Below, piece by piece: positions 4,474 through 54,190 of a DNA stretch of 64,000 nt. Below the pieces are notes generated by a model. That model saw only the letters and a program-made list of their open reading frames with translations, made no database searches and was not told the origin of the DNA. Every line of letters begins with the position of its first letter. The first letter of the stretch is position 1. The stretch is from Dipteris shenzhenensis. Its lineage: Eukaryota. The stretch lies in NCBI GenBank assembly GCA_047967505.1, contig CM106538.1; one strand, given 5' to 3'. A program made the position numbers and the translations under genes.

Positions 4474-6099
4474 ATCTAAAGGTCAGCATTATTTTGTCAC
4501 TTGTATTGACATACTTGTATAAAAGCAAAGTGATTGGTTTTTTTATATTAGTTTGCATTATAATTTTGTGCGTGCTACATAAAGGGGATCTATCTCTAAC
4601 CTCGAAGGCCTCTATCTCCATACAAGTGGTATATTTGAGTGACGAGGAGCTTGGATGAGTATGTCCCCAAGCTCATAAAATAATATATAAATATGAAAGT
4701 TCCTAAGGATCTAGCCTGCCAATTCATCGTGAAAAAACAAGAAGAATTGTTTTGAATCTTCCGACAATCAACGTTGAAGAATTTGGAAAGCTCATTAGAT
4801 CGAGTTTTATCAAGAGATAGTGAAAGGTTAAAACTTGGAAAGGTAATTCCAATTCACTGGTCAACCATTAGACTCACGTCGTGGTGCGTTGATTGTTATT
4901 TGGCACTTGCTGCCCGAATGGCAGCGGCAATGATCGACATATTGAACTTGCGCTGGAGCCAGGAGGCAGGATTCCGCAGTCCTATGAGTCGGGCTGAAGG
5001 GCCGCTGGAACCCGACTCCTGAGAACTTGTGAGAAGTGGCAGTTCTCAGTTCTAACACGAGGGCTTCGATTCCCGAAGTTGAGATTTGGCCTGGTCAAGT
5101 TTCCAATGAACGAAATGTCTCCTGATCGACGTGAATGTGCTGAGAGAGGGAACAAAGGGGGTCTTTATGCCGAAACGACTAGTTTGAATGTTGGGATCGG
5201 ATCCGGGGAGGATTGAAGATGATTGGGAAGGAGTGGGTGGGTGGGGTACAAAACGTAAAAGAACAAGTATTGAGAATATTGGACTCTTGAGGGCCAGAGT
5301 CCAGACTCCAAAGTTCAAACATGAATTCTTCGGTTGCAGCGTCTAGCCAATATAGTAGATTATTGATCGAAGGTAGGCACTGGGCGGTGGGAGGTTGAAG
5401 GATGAAGCCTGCAGGCTGCAGCCTGCAATCTGCTATAGAGTCCAGACTCATCACCTATACTGATAAATGGGAAAGATACGGACTGGACTCTGGAGATTTC
5501 TGCAACCTCTTTTTGTGTTGTTTTGCGAGTGGAGAAGGATATAAAAATCAGGGGGTTATTTAGGGAGTCGGGTTCTGTCGGAGGGGACTCTTTCAGACAT
5601 CAACCGGCCTGCAACGGAGGATTTCTGCAACTTGCAAGTTACAAGATGAAAGACTAAAGGGGACGTGTGTAATGTGTAGTATAGACTTATAATTGCTAAA
5701 GTGACATGATACTAGTACGACTCATTCACACTCACTATAAGAGTTTGGAGTGCAGGATTAAGTGTAACAAAAAGGACGTGTAAAAAACGAGCTGAGAGAA
5801 ACAGCACTATACTATCATTTTATATTTTGTGAAAACACCTCCAAATTCATGGGGAAGAAACTCCAAGAAATGCGAACTCGAATTTCATTTTTAGGAAAGG
5901 TGGGAGAAACTGGCACCAAGAGGAGCTATTATTGCAAAATACCGGTTCAAATTGTGCCTTAAGAGATTAAATTTCAATAAGCATTATCGTCTACAAAGCG
6001 GGTTTTGAAACAACCAAAAGGAAACTCTAGAGTCTGTTCCACAAAGTCTATATAAAAATTTGAAACCCGTGATGTGGTGAGAAAAATGTTTTCTGTGGA

Positions 6100-6889
6100 G
6101 GTGGGCAATTGGGTCGTGGGTTAGGGGTACCTGAGGAGGAGCGGGGAGGCAGGGTTTAAAAGCGAGGGTGAGTTAGGGGACAGGGTCATAAATAACGCGG
6201 GCAGTTATAAGAAAGGGGTTTAAAAGGTGGGGTGCGCGAGGGCGCAGGTGAACGTAACGGCTGCCACCCTCGCGGCGACAGCGTCAGTATGCCGCCGAGT
6301 AGGAAACACAAGCCTATAACCAGTCGGGCGGGTAACGCACATGGCCACCCGGGCCCACTTTGCATTATTGCTCAGTAGTCGCGGGCCCGGCTCTCGTCAC
6401 CCCACCAACGTGGCGCTTAAAAGCGGATCGTACCGTATCCCTTCCCACTCCCGACTACGCGGATTAAAATACGGGAAAAAGATAAGCGGGGGAACATGTA
6501 TGCCGCGTATATACCTATCTTGTACGTGATGATGGGGCGGCGATGACTCATCAGTGATGCATGGGATGTACATTGTACAAGGGTGGTGCTCCACTGCTCC
6601 CTGCGGGGTGGCAAGGCGTTTGGGGGCGCCGTTAGCGTTGACGGCGGACGTTAGGCGAGTGCCTGGGGGCAGGGAACCGCCGCCACATACGTGAGAGCAG
6701 TGACGGCGCCATGCACAAAATTAGGGCTTTAATGCAAAATTAGGGTTTAGTAGTGTTACGTGTGTGTGTATATATACGCATGTAGTAGTCCTCGCCAGTT
6801 AACCACAGCTCGCTATTTGTTTTGCCATTTATCCCACATACACACGCTTTCGCTCGCTTTGCCTTCTTTCTTCCTTCCTTCCACCTCCC
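6100..6889 (+). promoter_or_regulatory. CpG-rich promoter/5' region of the VQ gene
   Basis: CpG-rich island in a CpG-poor background; TATA-like TATATATA 6769-6776; telo-box-like TTAGGGTTT 6740-6748; GGGCCCAC (TCP-like) 6351-6358; pyrimidine-rich leader before the ATG. Motif matches only. Confidence 0.5.
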
Positions 6890-7636
6890 ATGGCGCCTCC
6901 CCCTCCCCCTCCCCCTCCCCCCTTCCTTGGCCTCTCCCATTCCTCCCTCCCTGTCTCCAAGCCCCGCCCCTCTCCCTTCCACCACCCCCCTCCCTTTTCT
7001 CCTCCCGTCCGCCTCACTCCCATCATCCGTGTCGTCCACGTTCGCCCTCCCAAAGTGATTAAGACAGACGTCGCCAACTTCCGAGCTCTTGTGCAGAAGC
7101 TCACAGGGATGTCGTCCATCTCCGAGAGCGATGAGCCCACTTCCAAGAAGCTGCAGGGGAAGGCACCCAAGCGCAAACGCGAGGACGCGGTCCGAACTGT
7201 CGCTCAGGATGGCCCCGACGTGCAGTGTGCGATCGCAGACACTGAGAATCTTGTGCAGAAAGAACAGTTCCAACAGTGTAGGCTGCAGCGCCATATGGTG
7301 TGTGCGCAACTTGCAGCACCGCTTCCATACTTGCAACCGTTGTCGTGCTCGCAAGTGACTGAGAACAGACTCACTGACGGGAGATCGAGATTCCACAACG
7401 ATCGTTATGTGAGCGGCGGTCTGAGCTCCGGTGAGAGTTCTGGAAGTGTAAAACGTTCGAAATTCAGCGACTTCGATATAATTTGTGGCCTTATTGCGTC
7501 CGTCCCAGTGCTCGAACTTCCCCAACTTCCACCACTCACAATTCCTTGTCACGAGAACAATTCTTTCTTAGAGCAACATTCTTGCTGGAGATTTCCGTTT
7601 GTGTCTGTGTTTTCTGGTGGACATCAGGATTTCTAG
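6890..7636 (+). CDS. VQ motif-containing protein (plant WRKY cofactor family), intronless, 248 aa
   Basis: Canonical VQ motif FxxhVQxhTG (FRALVQKLTG) preceded by the typical PKVIKTDVAN segment; Pro-rich N-terminus; basic KRKR patch; intact ORF. Confidence 0.92.
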   Translation: MAPPPPPPPPPFLGLSHSSLPVSKPRPSPFHHPPPFSPPVRLTPIIRVVHVRPPKVIKTDVANFRALVQKLTGMSSISESDEPTSKKLQGKAPKRKREDAVRTVAQDGPDVQCAIADTENLVQKEQFQQCRLQRHMVCAQLAAPLPYLQPLSCSQVTENRLTDGRSRFHNDRYVSGGLSSGESSGSVKRSKFSDFDIICGLIASVPVLELPQLPPLTIPCHENNSFLEQHSCWRFPFVSVFSGGHQDF

Positions 7637-9249
7637 ACCCAGGGTCACCTTAGGCCAATCTCTGCCATCTTCACGTTGAGGTCGTTGTGACTGAATTCTG
7701 CGTGAGATTCATGGAGGACTGTTGCATTGAGGCTTTGATATGAAGTGTATATATTGGATTCCCCGCTATGACGTTTCCGGTACGAATGAATAGCGCAGGT
7801 GTCATTGCCACACCTTCAGAAGTCCAGTGCGCTTGGTGTAAGCTTAAGCGTTCAAGGTGAACGAACACGACAGAGAAAGCTTAAGCGTTCAAGAGAAAGC
7901 TGCACATCCGGCAAAACTCGCATTTCGAGACTACTTGATTTGGCATGAGTGAGCATGAACGAGATGCATGCAGAGCAGTAGAACATCTGAGGTTTTTTGG
8001 GTAAATCGGTATATAGCATGGATGCTAGTCTCTGATCAACATAGTGACTTCGTTATATAATATATAGTGCTATCGGTGCAGACGTGTACAAACATCTGGT
8101 ATATTATGCTTGTAATTGTTAACCCATAGCCTATTGTGTCCAAAATTTAATGGTCTACGCATTTTTGGGTACTTCATCTCGCACTCACCCATATGGTGTC
8201 TATAACAAAGTGTAAACTTTGCATCTCGTTCACCAAGTTTGATAACGAGGTATACAAAACTCTAAAATCAGCTGATAGGACTATCTCAAATTCTCAAGTA
8301 CCGTATGCCGAGGAATTTTTGTGCGACATCCGGACACGTAGGGAGGGATAGATAATTCCACGTTATAGATAATGGACTTTACAAGCTGTATGATATCTAA
8401 TCATAATCTTGTATAATGGTTGGGCACTTGAATACTTTCATTGCGCTTTCTTATTTTAGGGGTCCTCCATCGTCCTACGATGTACACAGTCAAGATGGTC
8501 TCCACGAGCTTTTTATTGATAATACTTTACTTTGAGCTCAAACATTGGAATGTTCTTAAAGGCTACACTCTAAGCTCGAACAACGGCACGATCTAGCTGG
8601 CTACATGGTTTTGACTGTGCCCAGTAGATCATGGAAAACGTTTTCTGACTTCTTTTATCCCCCGGGCCCCCATTCCCAAGGAAAGGGAGTCTACAATTGC
8701 ATGGCTTATTGATCAAGGCTTCATGAGTACCCGCTGGTGACAGGTTAATTTACATGTCTTCGTCTACCATGCGTCTAAGTTTAGACTCAGTTCAGACCAC
8801 GATCTTTATTCTATCGCAATGTTTATTGGTGGAGCCCGGCCTGATCAATGAACCTGTGCCCCATCTTCGATCTGAAAGACGTTGTTTCACGTAGCTTGCT
8901 TACGACTACATGCTTCTCCTCCATTGCGGCCATAATTTGATATTGGAGTGGCCGCAATCATCCATGTCTCGCAAGCCACTCGACATTGCAATTTCCAAGG
9001 ACAGCTGGTGAATGTCCCTTGCATATTCTACCTTGCTAGCGCCTAAGAGATAAGTGGCAATGTGAGGACATGTGGTGGTTGGCCATTGGCTTATTATTAT
9101 AGCAATTTCTTTTACCATAAGTTTCTCATCCACCAGCACGCACAAGCTAATAATATCTTCTTACCATGATCTCTCCCCTTCCTCTTATATTTGGGATGTA
9201 AGATCATTCTCTTGTACTTGCTATGCTCATTTCATTAGTCCTCCCTTTG

Positions 9250-9880
9250 TAGAGTAGCTCGTCATTGCTTAGACTGCACTTCTGGCCCTTATTGCCACAA
9301 GGTTAGCACTAACACAAAGACTTCAATCCCCTAACAACAATCATGGTGCAACAACCCTTTGAAAAATGAAAAATTTACTTTGTAGGACCATACATCCTAC
9401 TGCTAAAGAAACACAAGCCTGGTACATAATAGACATAACACATTATTTCACTAAATGCGGTGAGGCAAAAGCAACATGCGAAGGTGATGCCAGAAGTACT
9501 GCCAAGTTCCTTTATAAAAAAGTGATCACACGGTACAGTTGCCCCTTAGAAATAGTCTCTAACCACAGAACACACTTTTTCAATGAAGTGATTTGAAAAC
9601 TTTACTTAGGATTCACAATCGTACACTGGAATACCTATTCCTATTTTCCCTATGGAAACAAGCAAGTAGAATTTGCCAATAAAACCCTATGCATTATTCT
9701 CACAAAGGTAGTGAAACCCAAAATCTTTGACTAGAAAACAATCTCAACTCTATCTTATGGGCCTACAGAACCACTTTTAAGGTAAGCACAAGTTTTACAC
9801 CATTCCAACTAGTATATGGTTTGGAGGCGGTAGTCCCATTAGAATTCATTATGGTCAACGTTTGCTTGGGTATAGCCAAT
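9250..9880 (+). pseudogene. Ty3/Gypsy integrase core relic
   Basis: YIIDITHYFTKCGEAKA..ARSTAKFLYKKVITRYSCPLEIVSNHRTHFFNEVI, then [26 protein letters not shown]; frameshifts and stops. Confidence 0.8.
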
Positions 9881-10128
9881 TGTAGAACTATTTTCGGGGA
9901 CATTTTGGGGCCGCAATGTGATGAGCTTCTGGGTGAATATTTGAAATTTGTGCGGACTCGCGCTCTTGTCAAAAATTTTCTCAACGTCATGAACACGCAC
10001 TGGCATAATAATGAGACGCAATCTTATCATGGTCAATAGCATAGAGCTCGACACATGGAACTATATGCATTTACTCATGAGCACATAGATTGTTGCTCCG
10101 GCCTCTGGCCTGACTACATCACACAACC

Positions 10129-10184
10129 GAGGTAGTCAATAGAGCGAGCGAGAAAAAGCGAGCGGGCCCAATGAAGCGAGCGAG
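10129..10184 (+). repeat. Left imperfect TIR of the MULE
   Basis: GAGGTAGTCAATAGAGCGAGCGAGAAAAAGCGAGCGGGCCCAATGAAGCGAGCGAG; AGCGAGCG at 10143, 10157 and 10175. Confidence 0.85.
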
Positions 10185-10897
10185 TTTTTTTACAATTCCT
10201 CCGATGAGAACAAATTTGAAACCGAACTTACTATAGCAAGATGTTGTCATAATAAGTATACCAATAATCAGACTTACAATCCACCCTATCTTTCACTTGA
10301 AGAACATAAACTAATTACCAAACTCATAACATAGATGACTATTGAAATACCACTTCACCCGCAAAATGCACTAGACCAAACTTTCCAAATGTATCCATGG
10401 TTCACCACAACAATTATCAGTCTATGAACAAAATGGTGTTTTAAACCATGTTCTAATCCTCGTGACATTCATCATCAAGAAAGTAGTTGCCCGCATGTGG
10501 TTTATCTAATTGCCACTCATCATATCTCTTGTCGGCTGTCATGAATCTTGCCATTTTTTCTGCATAGCATGGCAACAAACTACAACAAAACATACATTTC
10601 AAAGGAAAGTAAGTCAAAGTGGAACAATGAAAATAATTTCCAACAAGAAGAAAGTCTTGCCATCCTTATGTGTTATACAAAAGACAATTCGCTACCAACA
10701 AAAAGCAAAAAAAATCAATTGCTAGATCAAGGCCTTACAAACACTATCCAAAGCATCAAAATTTGTACTTTCTTGATTCAAAGGCACCCGTAAATGTTCA
10801 CTATCTACCATATTATAAAGATGCTAAATAACACTTTCAAAGTCCTCAATTTTAGCATTCAAAATATATAACAAAAAAACTCAGGGCCAGTAGCATA

Positions 10898-13800
10898 CTA
10901 GTCATCAAAGGGGTTTGTGACAGGTTCCACTCTCTCTTCTTCCCCCTCTCCATCATGCTCTGACCTGATCCGTTTTCCAGAACGATCTGCCACAAGTGGC
11001 TCAACAATGCTAGCCATAATACTGTTGTCTGAATCAAATGAAAAACAAGGCCTGCCAATGGCCTGACAAGCACGCATAAGAGGGGCTGTACCACAACCCA
11101 TCTCTAGAACCAGCCCTCCAGGAACACAGAGAAGAGACATAATGCAACCTACAAAAAAACTACTCCTCTCTAGTCCACCTCGTGCTAGCTGAGAAGACAT
11201 AGGCATGATTGTCCTTGCAGAGGGAGGTATGTAATGAGTCCAGACATCTTCACGTGGATCAATCAAAAGCTGTTGGAAAAGTGGAAAGCTCTCCTCCCAA
11301 AAAACTATTGGATTCTTCTTTGCTCTACGTATTAGAGCTAATACTGAAGATTGCATCTGGAAACCACATGGAGAAAAACATGTATAGTATATTGACTTCA
11401 ACTAGCAAGCATTATAGCATGAAAGATGGCAAAGATAGCATGCATAGGACTTATCCTTCCAAACATAGCATGCATAGGACTAACGAGGAGACATTTGTCA
11501 AAGACACTTTTATCATGGAATGCAAACATAGAATGCATGGAATGGTAGCTTACCTTAACACTTTTATCATGTTCTCTACAAAATCCATATGGAAACTTGT
11601 CATGAATGATCACACGTCTGACAACCTCCAAGCCCTGGACATATGCAAACCATTCCATCCAACCAATACATTGTCCTACAAGCAATTAATTTTATTTAAA
11701 ACTAGTAGAATGGAAACAAAAATGTGAAATGTCAATTGTGGTATTGTGCCTTACCTGCCAAAGGACATATGCATGCCAACCAACCACTATCAGACAAAGA
11801 AGCTGATGCAACTGCAAGCCCATGCCGCACATGGTCCTCGAGCAAGACATTCCAAGTAGGAGTGGATCCTCTCTCATCAAGTGGATAGCCAGATGGAAAA
11901 TCGAGCAATATAAAATCTGAAGCCCACTTCACCTTCTTACCCATCCTCTTGTAGTCCTGATCTCGACTAGCCACTGTAATAAAAAACTCATGCAAAATAG
12001 CATACTTATCATTTCTTTTAGAGTCAGCAAAGTCTTTGCCCATTGCAATGTAATCTCCAACTGTACAAGCAAACAAAGGTGTGATGCCACGGGCCAAGGA
12101 AATGTCAGGTGACTGTGATCGATGGAACACGTATTGCTTCACAAGTCCCGAGATTGATTCTCCACCTATATGCAAAAGCAAATTAATTACAAGTAAAACT
12201 AGTGTTAAAGGAACAACTACATATGCAGAACACAACAACACCCTTACCTGCACTCTCTATGTGATCCATTTCATGCCGCATAGGACTAGATGGTCCCTCA
12301 TCTAGAAAGAGAACAATCATAAACTTATTAATGCAATGTCAAAACAAATTGAAGACAGCATCAACAAACAATCATATTGTATCTTCCTTACCTTTTTCTG
12401 GAGGATGTTCTTGTTTCTCTTTCTCTTTCTTATCTCTCCTTGAGCTTCCCTCCACTTTGTCCTTACTTGCTTCATTGGCTTTTTGTGAAGCATAAGTATT
12501 GTACAAGTCTCTTTCTCGCACCAGTACTTGTCCTTTAGGAAAATCTATCCACCAGGGACAATGTGCTAATTCCCATTGAGAGAGACGGTGCATGCCAGGT
12601 GGATACATGCATGCAGCATGACCAATCTCCACCCAACTCTTGCACAAATTTGAAATGTCAGAGATCCTTTTCTCTATTGCCAAGTGGGAGAGATATCTAT
12701 CAACCAAGAAACACAAAAAAATTGGATGTCCCAAACCATCAAAAGGTCAAAAAATCAAGTGGAACAACCATCAATGATTGTGTAATTACATGAATCAATA
12801 GCACAAAAATAGACAAATGAAAAATGAACCTTCGAATGAATTGACAACATACCTATAAACCACCTATGGGCAGCCATGTCCAACTCAGATAGTCCATCTC
12901 CTTTTTTTCCACCCTTGCTCTCCATCTTTGTTTCCTTTGATCTTAGCATCACAAACATATGTTTTCTCCCCTCCAGTTTTATATCCTCCATGTATTGCTG
13001 CAATGTGTAATCCTTAGGGGTATCCAAAGGCATGCCCATTGTTGTGATCACCCTCAAATCTTCAAGCACTTTCAATGACTGTCTCTCCACCTTCTCCAAA
13101 AATATCTCTCTACTAATCCACCTAAACAGTAAAAGTTGACGCAATTTTATAATAAAAAAATAAGAGTCATGTTATTGGCAAGAAACAAACAAACACCATG
13201 AAAGATGATTCGTATTGGTAGAAGAAACACACCCTCTGTACTCAAGGTCGCCACAGGCATGAAGTACATGTCTCGCATAGGTTTAGTGGCTTCTAACAAA
13301 GAAAGGAAAATATTTTTTTTTTCTAATCTCAAATCAGACTTTGCAATGAGTTGGAGCTTCTCCAATGTCACGCAAGAGTCCGCACCATCAAAGCGCAAGG
13401 CAAACAACTTTTCCAACCAAGCCTCTCCAAGACCAGGATCTATACAATTCAACACCTATCCAAAGATGACATGTCAGTCACTTAACTTCAAAATAAATGC
13501 AACAAAGTATAGAAAATTCAATTCACACCTTTCCCATCCTATCAGCAATTCTCTTTTGAATTATGGTATGCTGCTTTCCTTGTGCCTCTCCCCTTTGATC
13601 TAAAGGTAGCTTTGTAGATATTTTGTCCATTGCTTTTTTAAGCTCTGTATTGTACTCAACCTACATACATAAGTTCCAATTAGAGAAAGCAAAGGAGTGA
13701 TACAGAAGTAAGCATCAATACAAATGCAACATTCTACCTGGAAGACAAGCCTTGCCAGATAACCTCTTGTCAATGGAAACCATGGCTTCTTCCCTTTACT

Positions 13801-14745
13801 CTCTTGAGCCCTCCAATTCTCTATTGATTTGATCTCACTCAAAGACAATGTTTTCATAAACATCATAGAGTCACACTCACAAATGTTGTGTGCATTTATG
13901 AGTATGTCCCTTAGACTGGGTTTGATAATGGCATGTTCATTCATGCTAGAAAACAAACAGTAAAGTACACAACCCAATCAATTATAAATGCAAAGTGGCA
14001 GCATAAAACACAAATGTGGAGAAGATTCAAAGAGTCCATGTACTTACGAATTCATTCGTTGTAGCCCTGCCAAGAGAGCAATCTCACTAATTTTCCTTGG
14101 GTCAATTATTGTGCATACCACTCGTACATGTCTTTTCTTGTTTGTAGGAAAGATTTCCTTGATAACACTCATCCATGCAGTGGTCCTATGATTGCCCTCC
14201 CAAACAAATAACATCTTTTGCGACATAAAATGAAAGTCAGTGTTAGACATCACATCTTTCTCAAACTCCTCATCCACCTCTCTCCAGGTGGGAGACCAAC
14301 TCTTCCTCATATCATCTGTCACAACTATCTCCCCTCCATCACTCTTGCAGACAGATACAATGAAAGACCCTTTCTCCAGGAGATAGCCCTCCACTTGAAA
14401 TGTACTTTTGAGTGAAGATACATCATCACGAAGTCCTCTCACTCTTGCATAAGGTATCAACCTACACAAGGGAATGCGAGGACACTGGTTTGAATCAAGC
14501 ATCCTACATTTGCCAATCACATCACCTCCTCCTTCCACCTGAACTTCACTATCATCCAACTCATCCTCCTCCACTCTTGGACCTTTATCTCTTTGAGTTG
14601 ATGATACTTCAACCTCTAGACCCACCACACTTTCTTGCTCTTCGGTTCCACCTACTGATGATTCAACATTGTGATCTACTTTTGTTCCTCTTGTCACCTT
14701 TGTAGAATGTGCCACTTGAACTTTTCTGCCTTTTTTTCCTGTCAT
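10898..14745 (-). CDS. Multi-exon (~10 exons) ParB-like domain + beta-class N6-adenine/N4-cytosine DNA methyltransferase-like protein, inside the MULE
   Basis: First coding exon 14745-14048 has RIPLCRLIPYARVR..FVWEGNHRTTAW (ParB/Srx GxHR). Phase-compatible GT-AG junctions lead to exons 13945-13738, 13660-13529 and 13455-~13230. Later exons give DFILLDFPSGYP (motif IV-like, ~11885-11917), LSDSGWLACIC, and PGGLVLEMGCGTAPLMRACQAIGRPCFSFDSD (motif I/II-like, ~11030-11125), ending at stop 10898. Some middle junctions are unresolved. Confidence 0.7.
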
Positions 14746-15317
14746 CCTGAAAAGACAAAAAACAAGGCATTTTTCCAATCATAGTTCTCAAAACCTTTTC
14801 AATAAAAACCAAAACTAAAAACAAGAAACAACATGTAACAACAGATAGAGTATAACCTACGGCAGGTTCAAAGGTCTTCTCAAATCTTTCCATATGCTCA
14901 AAAAAACATGAGAGCTTTTTCACATGTATATATGATAAAGGGTTTGTTTATGAAAACATATGCAATACATATCACGAGGGCAAAGCCCCAAACAGATAAT
15001 GAAGTGTGTACACCTCATAAGGAAAAAGCTTCAAACAAATATCTCAAACTGCTGACATATATGAATGCAAAGGTGTGTAAACTCGCACTTATGAATAAAT
15101 ATCATTTTACATATCTAGACAAAAATACATGTATCTACCAATGCAATTGATTTCCAGTTTAGGGAACATTCACCCACTTGTGTCCTAAAAGACAAAGTTT
15201 CATCTCCAATGCACATAGTATATCAACTTGCAGTGGTATCTATACACTTAGATATATGGAATTGCAGTGGCAAATATGCACTTCTATGCCTACCCCTTAC
15301 CCTGATGAAAAGACACC

Positions 15318-16540
15318 TTGAGAAGCGAAAAAGGACAGCGCGTTAACGTGCTGTCCTTTTTGGCATCTCAAGCTGTCTCTCATGAACGCTTTTCAGCAAG
15401 GCTTTTCTACTCAATCCTCCATGTATCAATACTCACAAGAGGTTGCTTCGACTATTTCATCTTTTGTCTCCAAGTATGCTTTGGTATACAGGTCTTATGG
15501 TCTTTGGAATGCTATTGGACTCTTGGAGGGATAGGTCACATGGTCTTTTGATCGCTATGCAAGGAGGGGACTATTGGACTGCCCGAGGGACCAAAATAGG
15601 CAACGCGTTAACGCGCTGTCTCTTTTGGTCTCTCATGCAATTCTAGAGCATAAATAGGACTGTCTTCGAAATGCTACCTAGATGCCGATGGTCTACAAGG
15701 TTTTCTAAAAATTTTCCTCTTATCTCTACACTTGAACATTGGGGACTTGCACTCGCTCATTTGTTTTGTGAGCTTCTTTCATCCGTTCAAGAGTTGAATA
15801 TCACTTGAATGCCTCTCATGGGAGAGGGTCTTGGACTGTCTGGGGCAACAAAAGAGGCAGCGCGTTAACGCGCTGCCTCTTTTACAGCCCTCCACAGTCC
15901 AAGTTCCCCTCCCTTGCATGACTCTGGGTAACTCTAGCAACCACATACATGCCTCGTATATATGGTTTGTAGAATATGGGCACAAATTTTTGACGGCAAG
16001 TCCTATAAAATGAAATGATACCTCGGGCTACTACACAACCAAGTCAACAAAAAACCTGTGAACACCATTGAGTCCTAAGCAACAACCACCGAGCAATGCA
16101 AGCAAAATGGAGTAACGAAACAAAATGGAGCAAGCAAAAGTCGTGAAGAGCCCGAGGAGATAAAATCCGACGCCAAAATGCAGACTAATAAGAGTATACA
16201 GAAAGGCGTACATCCCATAGCCTGGGGCAGCAAAAGAGGCAGCGCGTTAATGGGGCAGCAAAAGAGGCAGCGCGTTAACGCGCTGCCTCTTTTGCTGCCC
16301 CAGGCTATGGTGTGTATGCCTCCCACACTTCCCACAGTTGAAATGCTGTGGTGGCAGTTGGACTGCCTGGGGCAGCAAAAGAGGCAGCGCGTTAACGCGC
16401 TGCCTCTTTTGCTGCCCCAGGCAGTCCAACTGCCACCACAGTTAACGCGCTGCCTCTTTTGCTGCCCCAGGCAGTCCAACTGCCACCACATCCAAGAGAG
16501 GGCAGGAAGGTACACCACATCCAAGAGAGGGCAGGAAGGA
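15318..16540. repeat. Array of long palindromes with core AAAAGAGGCAGCGCGTTAACGCGCTGCCTCTTTT
   Basis: GTTAAC centres at 15342, 15607, 15864, 16274 and 16391; perfect 96-bp palindrome 16346-16441; half-copy duplications at 16223-16250 and 16441-16490. Confidence 0.95.
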
Positions 16541-16689
16541 TACCTGAGTGCGACGTAGGTGATGAAGAAGGAGGCCTGGGGAGGGAAATAGGAAGCGAGG
16601 AGGTTGACGATGGAGGGGGGGTGGGCGATGAAGGCACGGACGTTAAAGGTCCAATTGTCGTCTATGTTGGAGGCGTTTTCATGCGCTAG

Positions 16690-17459
16690 AAACCATTAAA
16701 GAAGGCATGCCCGTTGGAGCTCTTGGTGGTAGTCAGCCGAGCTATTGGGGAAGGCTATAGCATGAGCGTTGGTTGCCTTGTGGAGGCACCTTGCAGGTCG
16801 TTGGCGTCTACTAGTCCCGGAAGGCTGCGGAGGCTCTCTGAGTTGAGGTAGACAAGCTGAGTTGGGGAGCTTTGGAGAAGGTGCAGTAAGGCGCTAGAGT
16901 CCATTGCATGCGCATTGTGTAGAGCGGCGTTAGAGCATCACTGCCGCTGAGCAAAAAAGCCATGCTACCGGTTGAGGAGTCGTTTGGCCATTTGGAGCAC
17001 TGCTGGCTAGCAGTTGTTGGCGACGAAGAAGATGGTCGAGCTGCCTGGGCTGAGGTCGGTAGCGATGGTGACGCCGAGGAAGACTGGAAGCGGAGCAACA
17101 AAAGGGAGAGGGCGAGTGCAGCGGCGAAGGTATGAGTAGAAATGAAGACTAATAATGGGCGAAGGGAGATGGAAGCATTCCAAAAGCGGCAGGAAGGGAG
17201 GGTTGAAGGTATGGAGGTCGAGAATGGAGGTGGAGCTCTGAAGCAGGCGAGGGTGATGAAGGAGGCAGACATGGAGGGGACGGAGGGAGGGATGAGAAGG
17301 GAGTGAAGGGGGAGGAGGAATGGAATTAGAGGAGTGGGGAGTGAGAGTGAAGGTGGAGGAGGAGGAGGAGATATTGGAGAAGGAGCTATGGAGATATTGG
17401 AGCGATAGAGATGGAAGAAGGTGACGACGACGACGATCGTGGTGCATAAGGTAGACCAA
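16690..17459 (-). pseudogene. Possible degenerate ORF of unknown function inside the MULE
   Basis: The frame of ORF 17007..17459 continues past in-frame stops as plausible protein (..IFFVANNC*PAVLQMAKRLLNR*HGFFAQRQ*CSNAALHNAHAMDSSALLHLLQSSPTQLVYLNSESL..). No recognisable domain. Confidence 0.3.
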
Positions 17460-17460
17460 A

Positions 17461-17635
17461 GCGAAGCGAGGTTAAAAGAGAATGAGCGAAGCGAGGCGAA
17501 GGCAGGCGAAGGAAGGCGAAGGAAGGCGAAGGCGAAGGCGAAGGAAGGCGAAGGAAGGCGAAGGCAAGGAAGGCGAAGGCGAGTCTAGAGGCGAAGGCAG
17601 GCGAAGGAAGGCGAAGGAGTGCAGTAGGAAGGAAG
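17461..17635. repeat. (GAAGGC/GAAG)n purine-rich simple repeat
   Basis: Run of GGCGAAGGAAGGCGAA units, directly visible. Confidence 0.9.
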
Positions 17636-18275
17636 CTACAGTGCACGAGTTAGTAGTAGACAGCGTAGCAAACGAATTCTCTTGACGTAAACGCTGATGC
17701 CGTTTAGGATGTCGTCCGAAGTGCATTCCTGTGTTTGTATCCCTTCGTGTTGATATGTTTCCAGGAAACTTTTGTTTGCTTTTTTCAATGCATCGTAAAT
17801 CAATGCCCTCACAAGACGAATATAACTGTGACTTCTGTAGCGCAGCACCTCCTCGTCCTGGCAGACATCAAACATCTTGTAAAATTCGTTTTTAGACTTT
17901 TTGTTGCGCAATCTGTTCGCCATCTCTTCCAAGGCCTGGTTGAGATGCGTGTTGAGGTTGTAGGCAGTTCGTTTCAGTTCGTTTCCCGAGTACACAAAAG
18001 CTGATCATATAATACACTATTTTGGTTTTTCAGAATCTCCATCTCTTCCTGAAGCTTCGAACAGAAGTCCTGAAGTTTCTCTACCTTCTGTTCGAGCTTG
18101 TTACTTTGCACGGCCTCGTCGAGAAACGTTCTTTCTGTCGGAGGGGAGTCTTCGACCTCTGGTCCGGACAAAGCCCTCTTTCCATAGTCGAAGACTCGTG
18201 TGGACCTTGGACGTCGACGCTTAGTTTCCCGAAAGGATTCGCTTCTTGAGATCTTCCTCTTCTTTTATGAGCCAA
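17636..18275 (-). pseudogene. Small coiled-coil orphan ORF inside the MULE, frameshifted
   Basis: Overlapping frames 17974..18171 (SNKLEQKVEKLQDFCSKLQEEMEILKNQNSVLYDQL, heptad pattern) and 17636..17995 join by a frameshift near 17990; divergent from the transposase. Confidence 0.45.
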
Positions 18276-19104
18276 TGTTTTCCATCAATTTCATCAGCAT
18301 TTACTCCACTCGAATTCCAATGGACCTGTCACCCCGCCCAACGCTCAGTCAATGGCAGGCCTAGCCTTTAGAGAAACGATTTTATCAGATTTTGCAGGCC
18401 TGGTCATTATTAGACGGTAGGAGAAGACGTGGGTATGGGTAACGCCAGAAACCGCATAACCCTTGTAATAGTGAGGAGAACACCTTGTAATGACTCATGA
18501 TGGAAATAGTAATATTGCTCGTTCATGCAAATGTGAAGTAAACTAACACGTTTTGATAGTTTTCATTTTAGATATGGATTTGAAGATACTACTCATTCTA
18601 ACTATTACTAGTAAAATATAGTAATTATAAATCTTTAATTTTTTTCTTAATATTTTAGTCTTTCAATTATATAAATTTGAAAGTTACTTCTCTTTTTATT
18701 CATTTATATTAAATGTACACCCTTACTGAATGAAATGCATGTAGGCGTCATTCAAGTTACTATATGCATGAAGGCATCTTGTTCAAAGATTACCATTATT
18801 CTAAACAAATAAACACATCTTGTTCAATAAAGACTTGCAGTTAAACGACCACCTTGGATGCTAATAGTGACATCCATTTGCATTTGACACTTACAGAGAC
18901 GAACTTGCTTCTTCTCTTCTCTCCCATAATCCCTCTCAGTGGCTCTTTCAACACTTCTCTTTGCTCCATTCTCTTCGGTCTCCAACACATCTATGCCATT
19001 TCTTCTTTTGCCTCCCTGCTTCCGGACCCTTTGTGTAGCTAGCTTTTCTCTTGTTCTTTGGTTGGTGTCGTCTGGTGCTACATCTTGGCTCTAGCATTTG
19101 AATC

Positions 19105-22100
19105 ATGCCTTTCTCAGTTTTCATTCGCTTTGGAGAACACGAATCATTGACCATTCGTTTTGACACTCCTTTCCTGGAGGTTTCATTGGTGGAGCTTAAG
19201 GAACACTTTCACATTGAGAACGAGGACATTGAGCTGCATCAAGAAATCGGAATAGATGAGCTTGCCATTGTACTTCTAGTGGTAAACTTAGAGGATGGTC
19301 AGAAAGGGTTCAAGATTAGTGGTAGCCAACAATCAACCTTAAGAGTTCACATGCCCTATAAAAGAGGTTCTCATGGTGACTTTATGAATCATGAACTAAA
19401 TAGTGTGGTTTCACTGATAGAGAGGATGCCTTTGAATAGTTCTCTTCATGTTGCGCTCAAATCTGCAGTTCGAGTGGAGAAAGTTACTGAGCTTCCTCTA
19501 ACTTATGATGGATATATTGTCTTCGAACTTCCACCTATGCCTAAGGGTTCACCAATGTCTGGAATGGATCAGAATACTGATGGTCATGTTTGGACAAAAT
19601 ATTCCACATGTTCGCAAGACTGCTTCAATGGTGTTGTGAGAATGAGTAGATGTTCAGGTTATTTGAGATGTTGTAATTTGGATTGTCCTTTCCTTGAACG
19701 AATGGGAGTTTTAAATGATACACAATGGAAAGGAAAGCTTAGGAGACCTCCTCTACCTGGTCCCATTGATCCAGCCTTGGGGTCACTTGTGTGCAAGCAT
19801 TGTGATGCAATACCAGAGTGTGTTTACCTATGCAGTGCTATTATATATTATTGCTTTCCCCATGAATGAGTGAAGACAACGAGATGTGCAGTGCATGTGG
19901 GTTTCCATGACCATCCAGTTGAAAAAGGTAGAAGTCGAGCAAAGGAAATGCAAGTAGATGATCTCATTTCAATGCGTGCAAGGTTGAATGGAAATTCCTC
20001 TTGCAAAAAAATCGAGGTGTCTGTGGCACAAGACCTTGTGATGGAGATGATGCTAGCAAAGGATGGGGTTGTTGTGGAGCCGCTAGATGATCAAAAGTTC
20101 GAAGAAGTGCTTGAAACCATTACACCAATGACCCAGAGAAGGAGGCTTCAGAGAGTGGTGCAGAGCGCAAGAAGTGAGGCTAGAGGAGGGGATGGTGGAA
20201 TGGATTCAATACTTGATTTAAAGAGGAGATGCAAATATCCATACCTACAAAGTATCCTATTTCCTGAACAATTGCAAGATGAACAACAACCACATATCTT
20301 CAAAATGTCGACCATTGGTCCAGGATCAGGAGTTGATCTAGTGAATCGCATGCGGCCTGGTGGGAGCTTGGGATCACAATGGGTTCATTTTGACCATGTG
20401 CATCGAGTGAGGGGATGGTCAACAATGGGTGCTCATGTGTATGACCCATTCATAAGGGAACTATTAACTATAGCAATATGTGAATTCAAGGTGGAGGATA
20501 ACCATGCTCAAGTTCGATTCTGGGAGCTACTGAACAATACAATGGAGAAGAATGGTTTTAAAAATCCTGAATTCCGTGGATTCATGGCAGATGGAGCAGG
20601 AGCAAATTGGCTGGCTGTCCGCACTGTTTACAATGGGGGACCGGAAAATGTGATGGATGGTAGAGAAAGAACTTGTGTTTTCCATTGGGAGATGAGCATG
20701 GTTGAGCACACCAGACGATGCATTAAGCCGCAATTTCAGGAGGAGCATAAACTTCTATGTCGGAAGTGGAGAGAGGCAACAACTTCAACTTCTGCAGACC
20801 AATGCAAACAAACATTGAATTTGTATTGGTCCCCAATTCATGTGAAGGAGGGTGAGCTACCAACATTGCATACGTGGCTTGCTTGGTGGGATGTTAGAGT
20901 CAACCAGTGGGGGGGAATGTTCTTGCAGCAAGAAGAGCACTCTGGATTTGTTCCTACAGTGAACCTTTCAGAGACAAAACATTCTAGCATGAGAGCAGCA
21001 CATGGATATGCAAAACACATAACATTGTATGATGCTTGTGCGCAGATCTTGCAATGAGTGTCCTTCAGAGTGCCCACTACAATGCCTTTATGAATGGAAG
21101 ACACTTGGGTACAGGACCAAATTTGGATGCTCTCCGACGAAGAATACTTGATGGTAGTGGGTCTGGTAAAGGGGACAGAAATAGGCTTGTGGATTCATCA
21201 CACATAGTGATTGAAGAGGGTGGGATACAATCTCCTGAGATGAATAGGCCAATAACAGAATCGGTGAGCATAAGAAGAAAGAGGGGTTCAAAATGTTCAA
21301 CATCGGTCCATGCAAATGATAGTCATCGACCAGAATACATGACAGTGACAACAAGGAGAGTGATAGGGAAAAGAAGACAAATTGATTTTAAAAGTCCATC
21401 ACAGGACGTGGTTTGTAGAGAGATAGATATTCATGAAGCCAATTGGGCGATCAGGAGAACTGAACCACATAGCGTTGTCACATGCTTTGGCTACTTGGCA
21501 GAGAGTCGGAGACGATGTGGGGCACTAATCAATGCACTTGGTAGAAGTGCAAGTTATGGTGTGCCAGCCCCTTGTTTTAAGGGAAGAAGGCAACATTCTC
21601 ATGGAGTGACAGAGCAGTTTGTATGGTTTTGTAATACTTCTGTCACCCATACATGGAATGTGGATAAATCCATTCAAGGTGTTCCTGGGGTCTCTCCAGG
21701 TGTATGGAAGGTTGCAAGTGGGACATCAATGACTGTAGACGAGAGGGGTGCCCTTGTAAGGGCAGGTTTCGTATTTAATAGTGATGATTCTATTGGTGTG
21801 ATGGGACCTCCTTATGCATAGCAGATCCATACACCTAGCCATGTGCACCCTTCTCATCGTGATGGAAAGCTTGTTTCATGGAGAAGTAAGTTGAATAAAG
21901 ATTTCAACGAAAGGATACACAAGGCAGTTACAGAAAATGGGGAGGTGGTGAGAGAGAACATCATTATTCCACATGAGGTGCATGTATTCCATGTTCGTAC
22001 AACAGGATCAATGTCTAAGGGGCTAACATATAGTGTCTTGATTTCAGAGTTTCCACGTTGCACATGCCTTGATTTCACAGAAAGGGAAGCAAGAAAAAGT

Positions 22101-22250
22101 CCCTACATGCCTTGCAAGCACATATACTTCGTGTTTATTGTTGTCTTGGGCTTAACTGAAATGGTGCATCAGTTTATGCATCAGGCTGCATTGACAAAAG
22201 TTGAATTGTTTCAAGCTCTGGGTGGTAGAAGAAACCCATCAAGTATGTAG
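19105..22250 (+). pseudogene. MULE transposase with GCM-like N-terminal Zn domain and C-terminal SWIM finger; two stops and one frameshift
   Basis: C/H-rich region ending GFHDHP (GCM/WRKY-fold like); catalytic-type WVHFD, FMADG, CVFHW and VNLSETKH; SWIM CTCLDF..CKHI. TGA 19867-19869, frameshift ~21040, TAG 21819-21821; no introns needed. Confidence 0.85.
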
Positions 22251-22850
22251 TGTATGGCTTGGATGCCCTTTTTTTTCAATTCCTTCAGAATCGGATAATA
22301 TATGTAGGTGTGCTTCCTTGCATGATGCTACACTAAGTTGTATTTTTTGAAGGTGGAAGAAACCCATGAAGCATTTAGTAGGCAGCCTAGATGCCTTTTT
22401 TATATTTCCTTTGGAAGCGGATGATATATATAGGTGTGCTTCCATGTTTTGGCAATGCACAAAAAAACATTTTGTACAATCATTCCAAGGGTTGGTTGGA
22501 AGATATTTTAAAGCATCAAATTTTTCTATCAACTTTTTTTTGTATGACATATGCTTTTTGTGCTATGGAGTTAATAACGTTTAGAAAAAAGGTGACTTCT
22601 GACAACATGAAGAGCAGTTAATGTAATATGTTACTATTCTCATTATTGAAAGCATTCAATGTTTTATTTTATCATTACTTTTTCACAACAAAGGAAACAT
22701 GATTTGAACATGTACTTCTGGAAACATGCTAGCCAAGATGCAGGCGAGTGGTTAAGCTTTCTTAGAGCATAAATTGTGGTAATTGGCTGTCCTGGATGAA
22801 TATGATGTGGCTGTTATTAAACAGATAACACCTTGCATTGTTGTTTGTCC

Positions 22851-22891
22851 ACGCTCGCTTATTTGGCCTCGCTCGCTTTTTGGTAATCCTC
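22851..22891 (-). repeat. Right imperfect TIR of the MULE
   Basis: Reverse complement reads GAGGATTACCAAAAAGCGAGCGAGGCCAAATAAGCGAGCGT; CGCTCGCT at 22852 and 22870. Confidence 0.85.
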
Positions 22892-22900
22892 CACACAACC

Positions 22901-23600
22901 TTTGCCTTGCCATGAATTTGTGGCACATATGGTTTTTGAGAGGGTGGGTTGAGGAAAAGTACACTTGGCACAAGTTTATTTATTAATCCCCAATTGGTAA
23001 TCATGGATCACCTCGGCCATTCTTAACCAAGACGATCAATGAGTAAGGGATAGGTGTAATGTGTCTTTCCATCTCCATCACCACAAAATTCATCATGATT
23101 GTCAATCCATTCACATGCATTCTTGTGCATTAGCTAGCCCTAATTAAGGTTGCCCCATTCTTTGATTCGCAAGTCAAAGAACAAAATAGTTTTGGTGCCA
23201 CACTACATAAGGATGTTGTGGACTTAAAAATACTTATAGAGGAGAACAACCAACAAGCAATCATCCTTTGTAGGATGGCCTTACAGTATGCATGCACAAG
23301 TGCTTAACAATATTATCCTTGACTCAATCATAATTGGGTCTCATTCATAAGGGAAAACTCTCCCCTGTATGGTAGGTTTGAATGGCTCAATTAATGAATG
23401 AAAAAGGCAATGACCCCTCTAGGCAAGGTTTCTCCTCATAGGCTTTCTCTTCTAGGTTGGAATGGTGATCATATTGCATTTACTTAATTCATAAATGAAG
23501 GTAGGTCATTGCTTTCAAGACAAATGAAATTTGTATATATGAATCCTCATGGACTCTTGACATCGTGGATTGTTCTTCACTCCTTACCCTCTACTCCTTT
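22901..23600 (-). pseudogene. Probable Gypsy gag/protease relic
   Basis: Minus strand ~23100-23010 gives NFVVMEME followed by a decayed YPLLIGRPWL-like retropepsin C-terminal motif. Confidence 0.4.
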
Positions 23601-27517: not shown

Positions 27518-29351
27518 TTAAGTGCAAATGTAGATATTGCTGGCTACTGCACTAGTGTGTGTGAAATACCGACATTCACGTAGAGAGCATGACAACTTAT
27601 AGGCTTTCTTCTCATCACAATAGCCTAAGAAGATACATTTGGTGCTTTTTTGTTGTAGCTTGTTTCTCTCTTTGTCTAGTACATGCGCATAGGATTCACA
27701 CCCAAACATTGTAAAGTGGGAGACAGATGGCTTCTTACTGCTGTAAGCCTCATGTGGTGTTTTACCTTTGAGTGCCTTTGTATAGCTGTGACGATTAAGG
27801 ATGTAAACCGTAGTATTGATAGCCTTAACCCAAAAGTGGTTTGGCAGTCCAGCACCTTTCAACATACACCTCCCCATCTCCACAATGGTCTGCATTCAAC
27901 ATTTAACAATCGAATTTTGCTGAGGGTATGTGGTGTCATCATTTGTCGCTTGATCCCTTTAATCTTGCAAAAATCTCCAAACTCTGTGGAAACAAACTCA
28001 CCATCACCATCCGATCTGAATTTCTTCACTTTTCTCCCTGTTTCATTTTCAACAAGCTGTAGCCATTCTTTCAATTTACCAAAAGCTTGAGCCTTTTTGC
28101 GAAGAAAGTACACCCACATCTTCCTACTATAGTCGTCAACAATCAATAAAAAATAGGAAGATCCCCCCAGGCCTGTGTAGGCATCTTACTGCACAAGTCA
28201 ACATGCACCAACTCTAGAGGATTTTTTGCTCTATTCTTGCTTCTTGTGGGAATGCCTTTCTTTGTTGCTTGCCCATCATGCAAGCTTCACATGGTTCTTT
28301 GAATTCTGCTACTGTAGGTAAGTGAACAACCATTTCTTGCTTCTGCATCTCCTTCAGCACTGCAAGACCGATGTGCCCAAATCTTTCATGCCAAAGTCTG
28401 CTTGTGTCCACTCCAGCAGTGGCTATAAGAGCACTTAGATCATACAGGCTGTTCCTCCTTACTCCTATGCCAACAAGATTTCCAGCACTATCTAGAATTT
28501 TTTCTCTTATCTTGTTGAACCTCACCTCATGGTCAAGGTCAGTTATGGAAGCAACTAATAGCAAATCTCTCTTGATTTGTGGAACATAGAGCACATTAGA
28601 TAGTTTCTTAACATCTCCGTTTACAAAAACAAATGAAACCATACATGTATCCTCAAGAGGGCATTTTGCGTTATTTCCAACCATCACGGTGATGGGTTCC
28701 TGTAGAGGTTGCATAGAACAATATAGACCCTTCTTGTAGGTCATGTGATGGGAGGCACCACTATCCACCAACACCCATGAATTAGTGGTTGACGCTTCTT
28801 GAACTGAGGAATACTCTTCCTCAATGGCCAGAAATAGATCCAACTCTACTTCCATTGTGTTAGTTGTCTCTTTTCCCTTATCTGTCTTCTTCAGGGTACC
28901 ATTCTTGTCATCTGCTTTCTTAACCCGACAATCTGCAATTGCATGGCCCTTCTTCTTGCAGTAGAAGCATTCTCCTTGAAACTTCTTTTTGCCACCCTTC
29001 TTCTTTTGTCACCACTAGTAGAGGACTCACCTTTGGTGGAGGAACCACCTTTGCCTTTTGTAGTGGCAAAGAACACATCATCCCCATTGCTGCTTCCATC
29101 TCGAGCTTTAAGCCTCAATTCCTCCTCCATAAGTAAAGCACAGAACTCCTCAAATGACAATGGTTGGGGTCTCACCTGAGTGTTAAGTGCTGTTACCAGT
29201 CCATCAAACCTTGGTGGACATATTCGGAGACATCATCGAGCTAGCTCTTTGCTAGTATTTTGTATCCCAGCACCAGCCATGTGTTCACATAGATTTTTGA
29301 TTCGAGTTATGAACGCCTCCACTGTCTCTCCTTAATTAAACTTCTCAGCCA
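27518..29351 (-). pseudogene. Ty1/Copia gag-protease-integrase relic, related to Copia A
   Basis: LVDSGASHHMT (protease), LWHERFGH..CEAC (integrase HHCC), IVDDYSRKMWVYFL, RSDGDGEF. The gag segment PLSFEEFCALLMEEE resembles Copia A. No LTRs found. Confidence 0.85.
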
Positions 29352-30699: not shown

Positions 30700-30825
30700 A
30701 AGCGTCGCTATATAGTGACATTAGATAAACATCGCTATATAGCGACTATTACAAAAGTCGCTATATAGCGACTTATCAGTGTCGCTATATAGCGACACTA
30801 AGATACTATTTTATAGCGACGTTTT
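30700..30825. repeat. CACTA subterminal palindromic repeats (GTCGCTATATAGCGAC), left
   Basis: About five copies, e.g. near 30704, 30731, 30757 and 30781. Confidence 0.9.
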
Positions 30826-54062: not shown

Positions 54063-54077
54063 AAAGTTGTGTTAATC

Positions 54078-54190
54078 ATCACTATATAGCGACGTTTACT
54101 AGTGTCACTATATAGTGACGATTATCAATGTTGCTATATAGCGACATTTATCAACGTCGCTATATAGCGACACTTTATAGCGACGGTTCT
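54078..54190. repeat. CACTA subterminal palindromic repeats, right
   Basis: About five T(C/T)(G/A)CTATATAG(C/T)GAC copies. Confidence 0.9.

Follow-up and report, generated by a model that had tools for sequence, protein, structure and literature searches.

A decayed, putatively Mutator-like transposon in Dipteris shenzhenensis with a spliced accessory gene for a predicted ParB-like and methyltransferase-like fold protein

We analyzed a stretch of 64,000 nucleotides from Dipteris shenzhenensis (contig CM106538.1 of assembly GCA_047967505.1), hereafter the window, which contains a DNA transposon at positions 10129-22891. The element holds two genes arranged head to head, a transposase pseudogene on the plus strand and a ten-exon accessory gene on the minus strand, with an array of palindromes between them (Table 1). 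The product of the accessory gene joins a predicted ParB/sulfiredoxin-like domain to a methyltransferase (MTase) fold. An earlier reading made from the letters alone (the sequence-only reading) had taken the region as a single element bounded by a perfect 9-bp target-site duplication (TSD) and inverted ends, and these boundaries held: CACACAACC lies directly outside each end. The inverted ends are imperfect; each starts with GAGG, and they have in common a GCGAGCG-rich block of about 30 nt (AAAAAGCGAGCG..AAGCGAGCG) that is 87% complementary. The window contains a 17-nt end motif twice, once at each end of the element and nowhere else (expected 0.01). That both genes are broken in this copy had escaped the earlier reading.

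Table 1. Features of the transposon in the window, with position, strand and basis of each assignment.
Feature	Position	Strand	Basis
Left TSD, CACACAACC	10120..10128	.	read directly; same as right copy
Left terminal inverted repeat, GAGG tip, GCGAGCG-rich	10129..10184	+	repeat listing, motif count, contig breakpoints
Accessory gene, 10 exons, head-to-head with transposase	10901..14745	-	joined contigs, splice ends, exon frames, homologues P0001-3, P0009, P0012
Exon 1	14745-14048	-	ATG at 14745
Exon 2	13945-13738	-	
Exon 3	13660-13529	-	
Exon 4	13455-13233	-	
Exon 5	13121-12863	-	
Exon 6	12706-12392	-	
Exon 7	12301-12248	-	
Exon 8	12165-11755	-	
Exon 9	11675-11554	-	
Exon 10	11356-10901	-	stop 10898-10900
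Predicted ParB/sulfiredoxin-fold N-terminal domain; PLCR at 14472, EGNHR at 14199-14185	14050..14520	-	AlphaFold2, Foldseek
Motif IV position, DFPS, non-canonical	11891..11902	-	alignment, fold
Motif I (S-adenosylmethionine loop), GCGT in LVLEMGCGTAP	11087..11098	-	alignment, fold
Palindrome array between the divergent genes (five long units plus a half unit), core GGCAGCGCGTTAACGCGCTGCC	15311..16490	.	repeat listing, motif count
RSN1_7TM (OSCA-type channel) host-gene-like fragment	16441..16641	-	PF02714 on open reading frame 16078-16695
GCGAAG/GAAGG-type tandem repeat	17486..17632	.	repeat listing
Two overlapping open frames ("orphan ORFs")	17636..18264	-	open reading frame list
Transposase pseudogene	19105..22250	+	intronless, collinear with homologues
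Transposase in-frame stop TGA	19867-19869	+	frame comparison
Transposase frameshift	~21042-21045	+	frame comparison
Transposase in-frame stop TAG	21819-21821	+	frame comparison
Transposase C-terminal SWIM finger	~22032-22142	+	Pfam PF04434
Right terminal inverted repeat	22850..22891	-	repeat listing, motif count, contig breakpoints
Right TSD, CACACAACC	22892..22900	.	same as left copy

The same termini were found in other sequence contexts. Contigs from public runs (X1, X2, X3 and X6) were aligned to positions 9500-23500 of the window; no run is on record as RNA, and we guessed X3 and X6 to be RNA and X2 to be DNA. Three X3 contigs and one X6 contig part from the window exactly at 10129 and continue into other sequence, and contigs of X3 and X6 do the same exactly at 22891, showing that the family has inserted elsewhere with the same termini. 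On the same stretch we counted 527 X1 contigs, 94 of them with an identity of 99% or more, 242 between 95 and 99%, 143 between 90 and 95%, and 48 below 90%; the X1 pieces listed map to the accessory gene, to the transposase and to the right end. The window holds a dead member of a multi-copy DNA transposon family. Coverage was uneven: the contigs of X2, X3 and X6 left the transposase part almost uncovered, and those of X1 covered little or nothing of the segment at about 16.0-18.4 kb and of the flanks. Because the runs had been found via the accessory gene, and because contigs break at repeats, nothing is concluded from these gaps. Among the public-run contigs, the flanks of other copies beyond the termini did not pair up by a shared 9-bp TSD, and no paralogous empty site was present within the 64-kb window. 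Contigs of X3 and X6 also join 21679 directly to 22852, skipping 1172 bases with the ends TG..CA, and contigs cease to match the window just before 21652. The joint may represent a deletion derivative with the same right end.

The plus-strand frames of the transposase (19102-22250) are collinear, without introns, with proteins P0004-6 from public assemblies (1050-1058 aa), and those of the window copy are 48% and 44% identical to the 1058-aa P0004 over two blocks. The N-terminus, the part meant by the putative GCM label, is rich in Cys and His. The C-terminal SWIM finger (PF04434) scored 22.8 bits in P0004 against a cutoff of 19.6, remained below the cutoff in the window copy (E 0.0055), and was matched in four out of 20 family members or pieces. 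On the strength of the 9-bp TSD, the terminal inverted repeats and this finger, we file the element as Mutator-like. The transposase had been called a plus-strand GCM-MULE-SWIM protein (MULE, Mutator-like element). The strand and the SWIM finger were verified, but Pfam detected neither GCM nor the MULE core in any of the 20 (the MULE and Transposase_mut models, PF10551 and PF00872, were searched at E <= 1), so that the "GCM-MULE" part of the name now rests on TSD length, SWIM finger and language-model features. Among the latter, P0004 lies near eukaryotic SWIM/MULE clusters of the ESM Atlas (0.86-0.90), which we treat as a lead only. The transposase alignment presumably holds the D..D..CxxH..E pattern.

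The divergent minus-strand gene was proposed to be spliced, and the contigs agree with this. Three hypothetical proteins of Adiantum nelumboides match its frames between 14712 and 10904. Intron-less joints were found at nine places in X3, most of them in X2 and X6 too, and eight of the nine have CT..AC ends on the plus strand, corresponding to GT-AG introns on the minus strand. The resulting ten exons have frames that fit the homologues and encode a conceptual product of about 959 aa. Most simply, the joined contigs derive from spliced molecules, that is, transcripts. Frames are intact through exons 1-4 and 6-10, except for a 1-base slip where exon 4 ends and another at the donor of exon 5, the window copy having 1-bp deletions near 13250 and at 12862/3. 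Since other copies carry an extra C at both sites (after 13250 in X3; after 12862 in X1, X2 and X3), the gene in the window is broken; the frame in which exon 4 continues after its slip is the one that matches the Adiantum homologue. Two alternative joints were also seen, 13118-13383 (skipping 264 bases instead of 111) and 13658-14046 (skipping 387 instead of 77), which suggests that isoforms or variant copies exist.

We searched for relatives of the accessory protein exhaustively with HMMER, using the homologue P0001 as query and counting matches at E <= 1e-3. This returned 265 relatives, and an alignment of 122 of them served for an AlphaFold2 model of P0001, with a pLDDT of 74.5 overall and above 90 in the domain cores. 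Compared with structures in PDB using Foldseek, the model gave 173 matches at E <= 0.001. The best named were the MTases CcrM (E 2e-11), M.BceJIV (5.4e-10) and M.PvuII (6.1e-9), and further fold matches were M1.HpyAVI, M.RsrI, M.MboIIA and the N4CMT of bdelloid rotifers (8s9m, E 2.6e-7), with target TM-scores of 0.48-0.71 for the named MTases. Among predicted viral structures (BFVD), the best matches included phage proteins with lengths of 397-518 aa whose alignments, of 459-560 columns, span both domains; one of these is named ParB/Sulfiredoxin. Likewise, the nearest named clusters in the ESM Atlas were phage proteins with N6_N4_Mtase and ParB_N (0.85-0.86). Sequence models came closest in the liverwort Riccia sorocarpa: its protein P0158 gave the best PF01555 match (E 5.2e-5, 23.7 bits, sub-threshold against a cutoff of 26.7). 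The PHROG DNA-methyltransferase family phrog_3008 matched five of ten proteins at E <= 0.15, always in the C-terminal part with the S-adenosylmethionine (SAM) loop (E 0.01 for the window; best in P0158, 8.7e-7). Searches of NCBIfam gave generic methyltransferase matches only, far below threshold, and sequence searches of PDB with P0001 and with the profiles A1, A2 and A5 gave nothing significant, no profile search falling below E 0.27. P0158 is also one of three Riccia proteins (with P0156 and P0159) that UniRef names "Trimethylguanosine synthase" and that fall in the 90%-identity cluster of P0089, itself unnamed; as P0158 matches only sub-threshold DNA-methyltransferase models, the name looks misleading.

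Two motifs of this fold could be placed. Of 19 aligned rows, 13 have the GxGT of the SAM loop (motif I), the window among them. At motif IV, an Asp occupies the first position in 30 of 34 rows and a Pro the third in all 34, with an aromatic residue at the fourth in 13; the forms include DLPF (9), DFPT (6), DLPT (4) and DVPF (3), and the window has DFPS. In P0001, both motifs come directly after a strand, D-x-P-x at residues 313-319 and GxGT at 490-493, and this order, motif IV before motif I, fits the permuted beta class of amino-MTases. A conserved region of about 400 aa lies between the ParB-like and the MTase-like parts. Thus, the accessory protein has an MTase fold, probably with its cofactor site, in agreement with the N6A/N4C-MTase-like motifs of the sequence-only reading, although it is the structure search that recovers the beta-class fold, and not Pfam.

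The fold might nevertheless belong to a pseudoenzyme, which would bind DNA and/or SAM without methylating and act as a transposition cofactor or an anti-silencing factor. MURB and VANC have comparable cofactor or anti-silencing roles. Motif IV itself speaks for this, as it never has the canonical form (D/N/S)PP(Y/F/W): a Pro at position 2, and with it the PP dipeptide, is found in none of the 34 rows, making catalysis doubtful. A fern sublineage has in addition lost the aromatic residue of position 4 (DFPT, DFPS, DFPP), and the Pfam N6_N4_Mtase model is sub-threshold everywhere. Pulling the other way are the retention of GxGT, with an acidic residue past the next strand, and that of the Asp, the Pro and in part the aromatic residue (DLPF, DVPF) of motif IV, a conservation across ferns and liverworts that exceeds the needs of a scaffold. 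We regard the pseudoenzyme as a possibility to be kept in mind, with the odds nonetheless against it.

The N-terminal domain was modeled with a pLDDT of 95.8. When it was searched against PDB, the named neighbours at ranks 1-37 were all ParB, Noc, sulfiredoxin (Srx), KorB, PadC or SbnI, with probabilities up to 1.00, query TM-scores of 0.21-0.44 and target TM-scores up to 0.56. The motif [DE]GNHR occurs in 66 of 86 aligned relatives, and its G, N, H and R are almost invariant in alignment A2. It presumably corresponds to the G-x-x-R-type motif that follows the central strand in ParB/Srx proteins, and presumably it is nearer to the motif of ParB-like nucleases and sulfiredoxin than to the CTPase box of ParB. 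The ParB-like motifs of the sequence-only reading find support in the predicted fold, at weak E-values, and not in Pfam.

Between the two genes, the palindrome array of the sequence-only reading was recovered: the 22-nt core, of which 0.00 matches were expected, has five in 15334-16404, and seven of the 14 long palindromes of the window are located within 15311-16441. Array palindromes are of the GCGCGTTAACGCGC type. Adjoining them, and overlooked before, is a frame that matches RSN1_7TM (E 5.2e-7, 29.8 bits, cutoff 28.7) and looks like a captured host-gene fragment as found in Pack-MULEs. Further along the segment, the two "orphan ORFs" reported earlier do exist as open frames (17636-18264 and 16811-17584, minus strand), but they lack relatives that would support a coding status: none was found among the stored proteins or in 80 metagenome loci, the only domain match being a sub-threshold coiled-coil (ZapB). 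A single X3 contig falls on 17795-18013. Of the array, only the first palindromes lie within the parts covered by X1 contigs. The host fragment, the tandem repeat and the frames without relatives indicate that the middle segment is at least partly acquired or variable.

In an uncontrolled comparison, unrelated metagenome loci also had palindromes no farther than about 2.5 kb from a ParB-like gene: L057 (8850-9524), L070 (7847-7920), L064 (4479-4562) and L052 (12567-12806). Several of these palindromes are built on AAGCTTGG-type cores.

By analogy, we infer that the ParB-like domain may be linked to the palindromes. A different role is conceivable for the domain, that of a nuclease or NTPase aiding excision or integration, in which case the palindromes would be unrelated to it, as copy-specific repeats or small foldback insertions. 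The presumed likeness of [DE]GNHR to the ParB-like nuclease/sulfiredoxin motif speaks for such a role, as do the variability of the palindrome-bearing segment and the failure to identify any helix-turn-helix (HTH) of ParB type in the protein. It sits poorly with the proximity of palindromes to ParB-like genes in the unrelated loci just listed, uncontrolled as that comparison is, and with the same association as reported for the Plavaka transposons of red algae. We consider this role very unlikely.

The accessory gene is not confined to the window. Named relatives come from the ferns Adiantum capillus-veneris and A. nelumboides and the liverwort Riccia sorocarpa, under many different locus tags, and two of these three species, A. 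nelumboides and Riccia, also provided named relatives of the transposase. The full order of ParB-like part, middle and MTase-like part was found again in A. capillus-veneris P0009 and in the metagenome locus L002. As a side observation, the ParB-like relative P0054 of A. capillus-veneris (1176 aa) is annotated with a NIF/FCP1-type phosphatase domain (PF03031, E 2.4e-12), so that the two domains are either truly fused or were merged in the gene model.

We scanned metagenome contigs with a 10-row alignment, which gave 174 ParB-like stretches, 80 loci being kept. Four of these (L040, L057, L075 and L076, representing three distinct elements) have remnants of the transposase family upstream of the ParB-like gene and on the opposite strand, at distances of 0.8-7 kb, compared with 4.3 kb in the window. 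Long ORFs of other loci were ordinary plant or copia genes only. The ParB-like P0067 and the transposase relative P0172 both come from a 5291-bp contig, presumably the same one, as judged from its size alone. A tblastn search of phage records with the ParB-like exon gave no match.

Against a partnership of this kind stands the idea of an independent mobile or host gene, nested in the element or captured as in Pack-MULEs, without a functional transposase partner. The element did capture at least one host fragment (RSN1_7TM), most of the long metagenome loci with a ParB-like gene have no transposase remnant, and the locus tags of the named homologues sampled in Adiantum and Riccia are not adjacent, although this sample is small. 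We find the idea quite unlikely, given that the divergent pairing returns in three distinct and deeply diverged elements (L040, L057, L075/76), that P0067 and P0172 point the same way with the caveat on contig identity, that X1 contigs fall on both genes, and that the repeat listing of the window shows no internal TSD or terminal inverted repeat flanking the accessory gene. With its 265 relatives, the recurrence of the pair, the intron-less contigs in three public runs and the contigs that part from the window at both termini, the gene is not the one-off capture that the sequence-only reading had allowed for; it belongs integrally with the transposase lineage, as a spliced partner that is conserved widely. 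Dozens of Adiantum and Riccia "hypothetical proteins" are transposon genes, which calls for caution by annotators.

Taking these results together, we favour, with a probability of roughly 0.55, the following explanation: the element represents a two-gene Mutator-like family of a fern-like land plant, in the form of a dead copy, and the accessory protein, with its ParB-like and MTase folds, acts on the DNA of the element. The autonomous form would carry the two genes head to head. One would encode a transposase of about 1050 aa that is rich in Cys and His at the N-terminus and has a SWIM finger at the C-terminus, and the other an accessory protein of about 960 aa consisting of a ParB/sulfiredoxin-fold domain, the middle region and a circularly permuted beta-class MTase fold, presumably a deeply diverged, intron-bearing eukaryotic relative of phage ParB-MTase fusions. 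The ParB-like part would recognise element DNA, with the array of palindromes between the diverging promoters as a candidate recognition site, and the SAM-binding MTase fold would mark or occupy that DNA, which in turn might modulate the silencing or the transposition of the family. The results show the anatomy of the element, the folds, the splicing, its membership in a family and the repeated pairing of the two genes; self-recognition and self-marking are plausible. The gene model, the conserved motifs and the candidate binding sites make self-marking by eukaryotic transposons directly testable, and at low cost, since PacBio and nanopore data already exist for several fern and liverwort genomes.

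Several observations weigh against this explanation. No ParB match was obtained with Pfam in the window or in the relatives (PF02195 included), the window and 16 relatives from ferns also lacked any N6_N4_Mtase match at threshold, and the Foldseek E-values of the ParB-like domain are weak, ranging from 9.8e-3 at best to 1.3. To these add the non-canonical motif IV and the Pfam-invisible transposase core already described. Neither a transposase remnant near the ParB-like gene nor an MTase half was seen in a further set of at least ten long metagenome loci, all distinct, and the non-adjacent locus tags in Adiantum and Riccia count here too. In prokaryote and viral contigs, the pattern VW[DE]GNHR had 22 and 17 matches, none of them (0) a relative. 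The middle 3 kb, with most of the palindromes and the host fragment, is scarce among X1 contigs. The joined form of the accessory gene is also found in X2, guessed to be DNA, so the intron-less contigs could be processed DNA copies. Finally, the 14 exonic differences from other copies that were listed (in a sample of 37 out of 369 differences) comprise 11 non-synonymous and three synonymous changes, a pattern close to neutral in a sample whose small size and bias do not allow selection to be judged.

A stronger version of the favoured explanation is that the Mutator-like lineage, spread among land plants with ferns and liverworts included, has an active, non-canonical (D-x-P-x) DNA amino-MTase tethered by its ParB-like domain to the palindromes of its own elements. 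We see this as rather unlikely. If true, the transposon would write N6-methyladenine (6mA) or N4-methylcytosine (4mC) on itself, and so escape or redirect host silencing by 5-methylcytosine and small RNAs. Land plants would then possess an epigenetic writer encoded by a transposon, and amino-methylation signals in the genomes of ferns and bryophytes would have a hidden source.

Outside the element, the window is rich in retrotransposons. Frames of Ty1/copia polyproteins (RVT_2, rve, gag) were found at 38824-41982 (plus strand) and 44648-47542 (minus strand), with a third fragment at 28214-29008 (minus strand); the first of these, a 1052-aa ORF, had been a candidate for a second transposase copy and was ruled out as a copia polyprotein. 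An open frame at 32953-33687 (minus strand) resembles Transposase_21, of CACTA/EnSpm type, below threshold (E 4.5e-5, 23.2 bits against 28.6). The frame at 6803-7636 (plus strand) has a VQ motif (PF05678, E 1.3e-12) in a region of 53% GC (6001-8000), and is probably a host gene. A second and unrelated set of palindromes, with GCGAC..TATAGCGAC units, lies at 54070-54174, 30753-30824 and 35257-35304, and may represent subterminal repeats of another transposon family.

The sequence-only reading knew of no described MULE with such a cargo. Our search of the full-text literature, subscription journals and supplements being outside its coverage, likewise found none in a MULE or in a land plant. As a statement of novelty this is nonetheless too strong, because accessory proteins with ParB-like and MTase domains have been published for algal transposons. 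In the brown alga Ectocarpus, the publication on Sola1-1_Ec32 describes a 1104-aa protein with ParB-like and 4mC/6mA DNA MTase domains, which is encoded on the strand opposite to that of the transposase and, according to the proposal made there, binds and marks the element that carries it; for such accessory proteins in transposons of green and red algae it cites Iyer et al. 2011 and a Bostrychia paper (PMC12477816). Our element is similar in having a long ParB-like and MTase protein (about 960 aa) opposite the transposase in a large DNA transposon. It differs in being Mutator-like (9-bp TSD, SWIM) instead of Sola1, and in coming from ferns and bryophytes instead of a brown alga; moreover, Pfam is blind to both domains here and motif IV is non-canonical. 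The two proteins are likened here by description. In the red-algal Plavaka elements (EnSpm), according to the Bostrychia preprint, PAG2 has an N6A-MTase-like domain and PAG3 a ParB-like domain, and tandem arrays of inverted repeats adjoin the ParB-domain gene, for which self-binding has been proposed (bioRxiv 10.1101/2025.02.11.637652). There the domains are described in separate proteins with other partners (SET, 2-oxoglutarate oxygenase), whereas here they are fused, in a Mutator-like element.

The domain order and the folds are those of the phage and bacterial ParB_N + N6_N4_Mtase fusions (PF02195 + PF01555), but identity to these is 9-14%, and the plant protein is set apart by introns, by about 400 aa inserted in its middle, and by D-x-P-x in place of DPPY/SPPY. 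Other Mutator-like elements also have a second, family-specific gene that affects the activity or silencing of the element itself, as with mudrB of MuDR and VANC of VANDAL; neither is known to be related to our protein or to have a ParB or MTase fold. Bacterial-type amino-MTases of the beta class are also found in eukaryotes as MpDN4MT1 (Marchantia) and N4CMT (bdelloid rotifers), but these are host genes; MpDN4MT1 is reported to have a canonical TSPPY, and ParB has 0 occurrences in that source (bioRxiv 10.1101/2021.02.12.428880). Dam-like MTases fused to a ParB HTH, derived from phage ParB-terminase loci, are described for chlorophytes and chytrids by Iyer et al. 2016 (PMC4738411). They share with our protein the combination of a eukaryotic amino-MTase and a ParB-derived module; they are of the M.EcoKI/TaqI-like group 2 with a ParB HTH, while ours is of the beta class (CcrM, PvuII, RsrI) with a ParB/Srx N-terminal domain.

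As in the algal Sola1 and Plavaka elements, both domains lie here inside one DNA transposon and separate from its transposase. The present family thus extends a cargo of the algal type to the Mutator-like superfamily and to land plants, and defines a large family invisible to Pfam in ferns, a liverwort and many environmental plant contigs. What is new compared with the algal systems is the superfamily, the range among land plants, the size of this Pfam-invisible family and the non-canonical catalytic motif.

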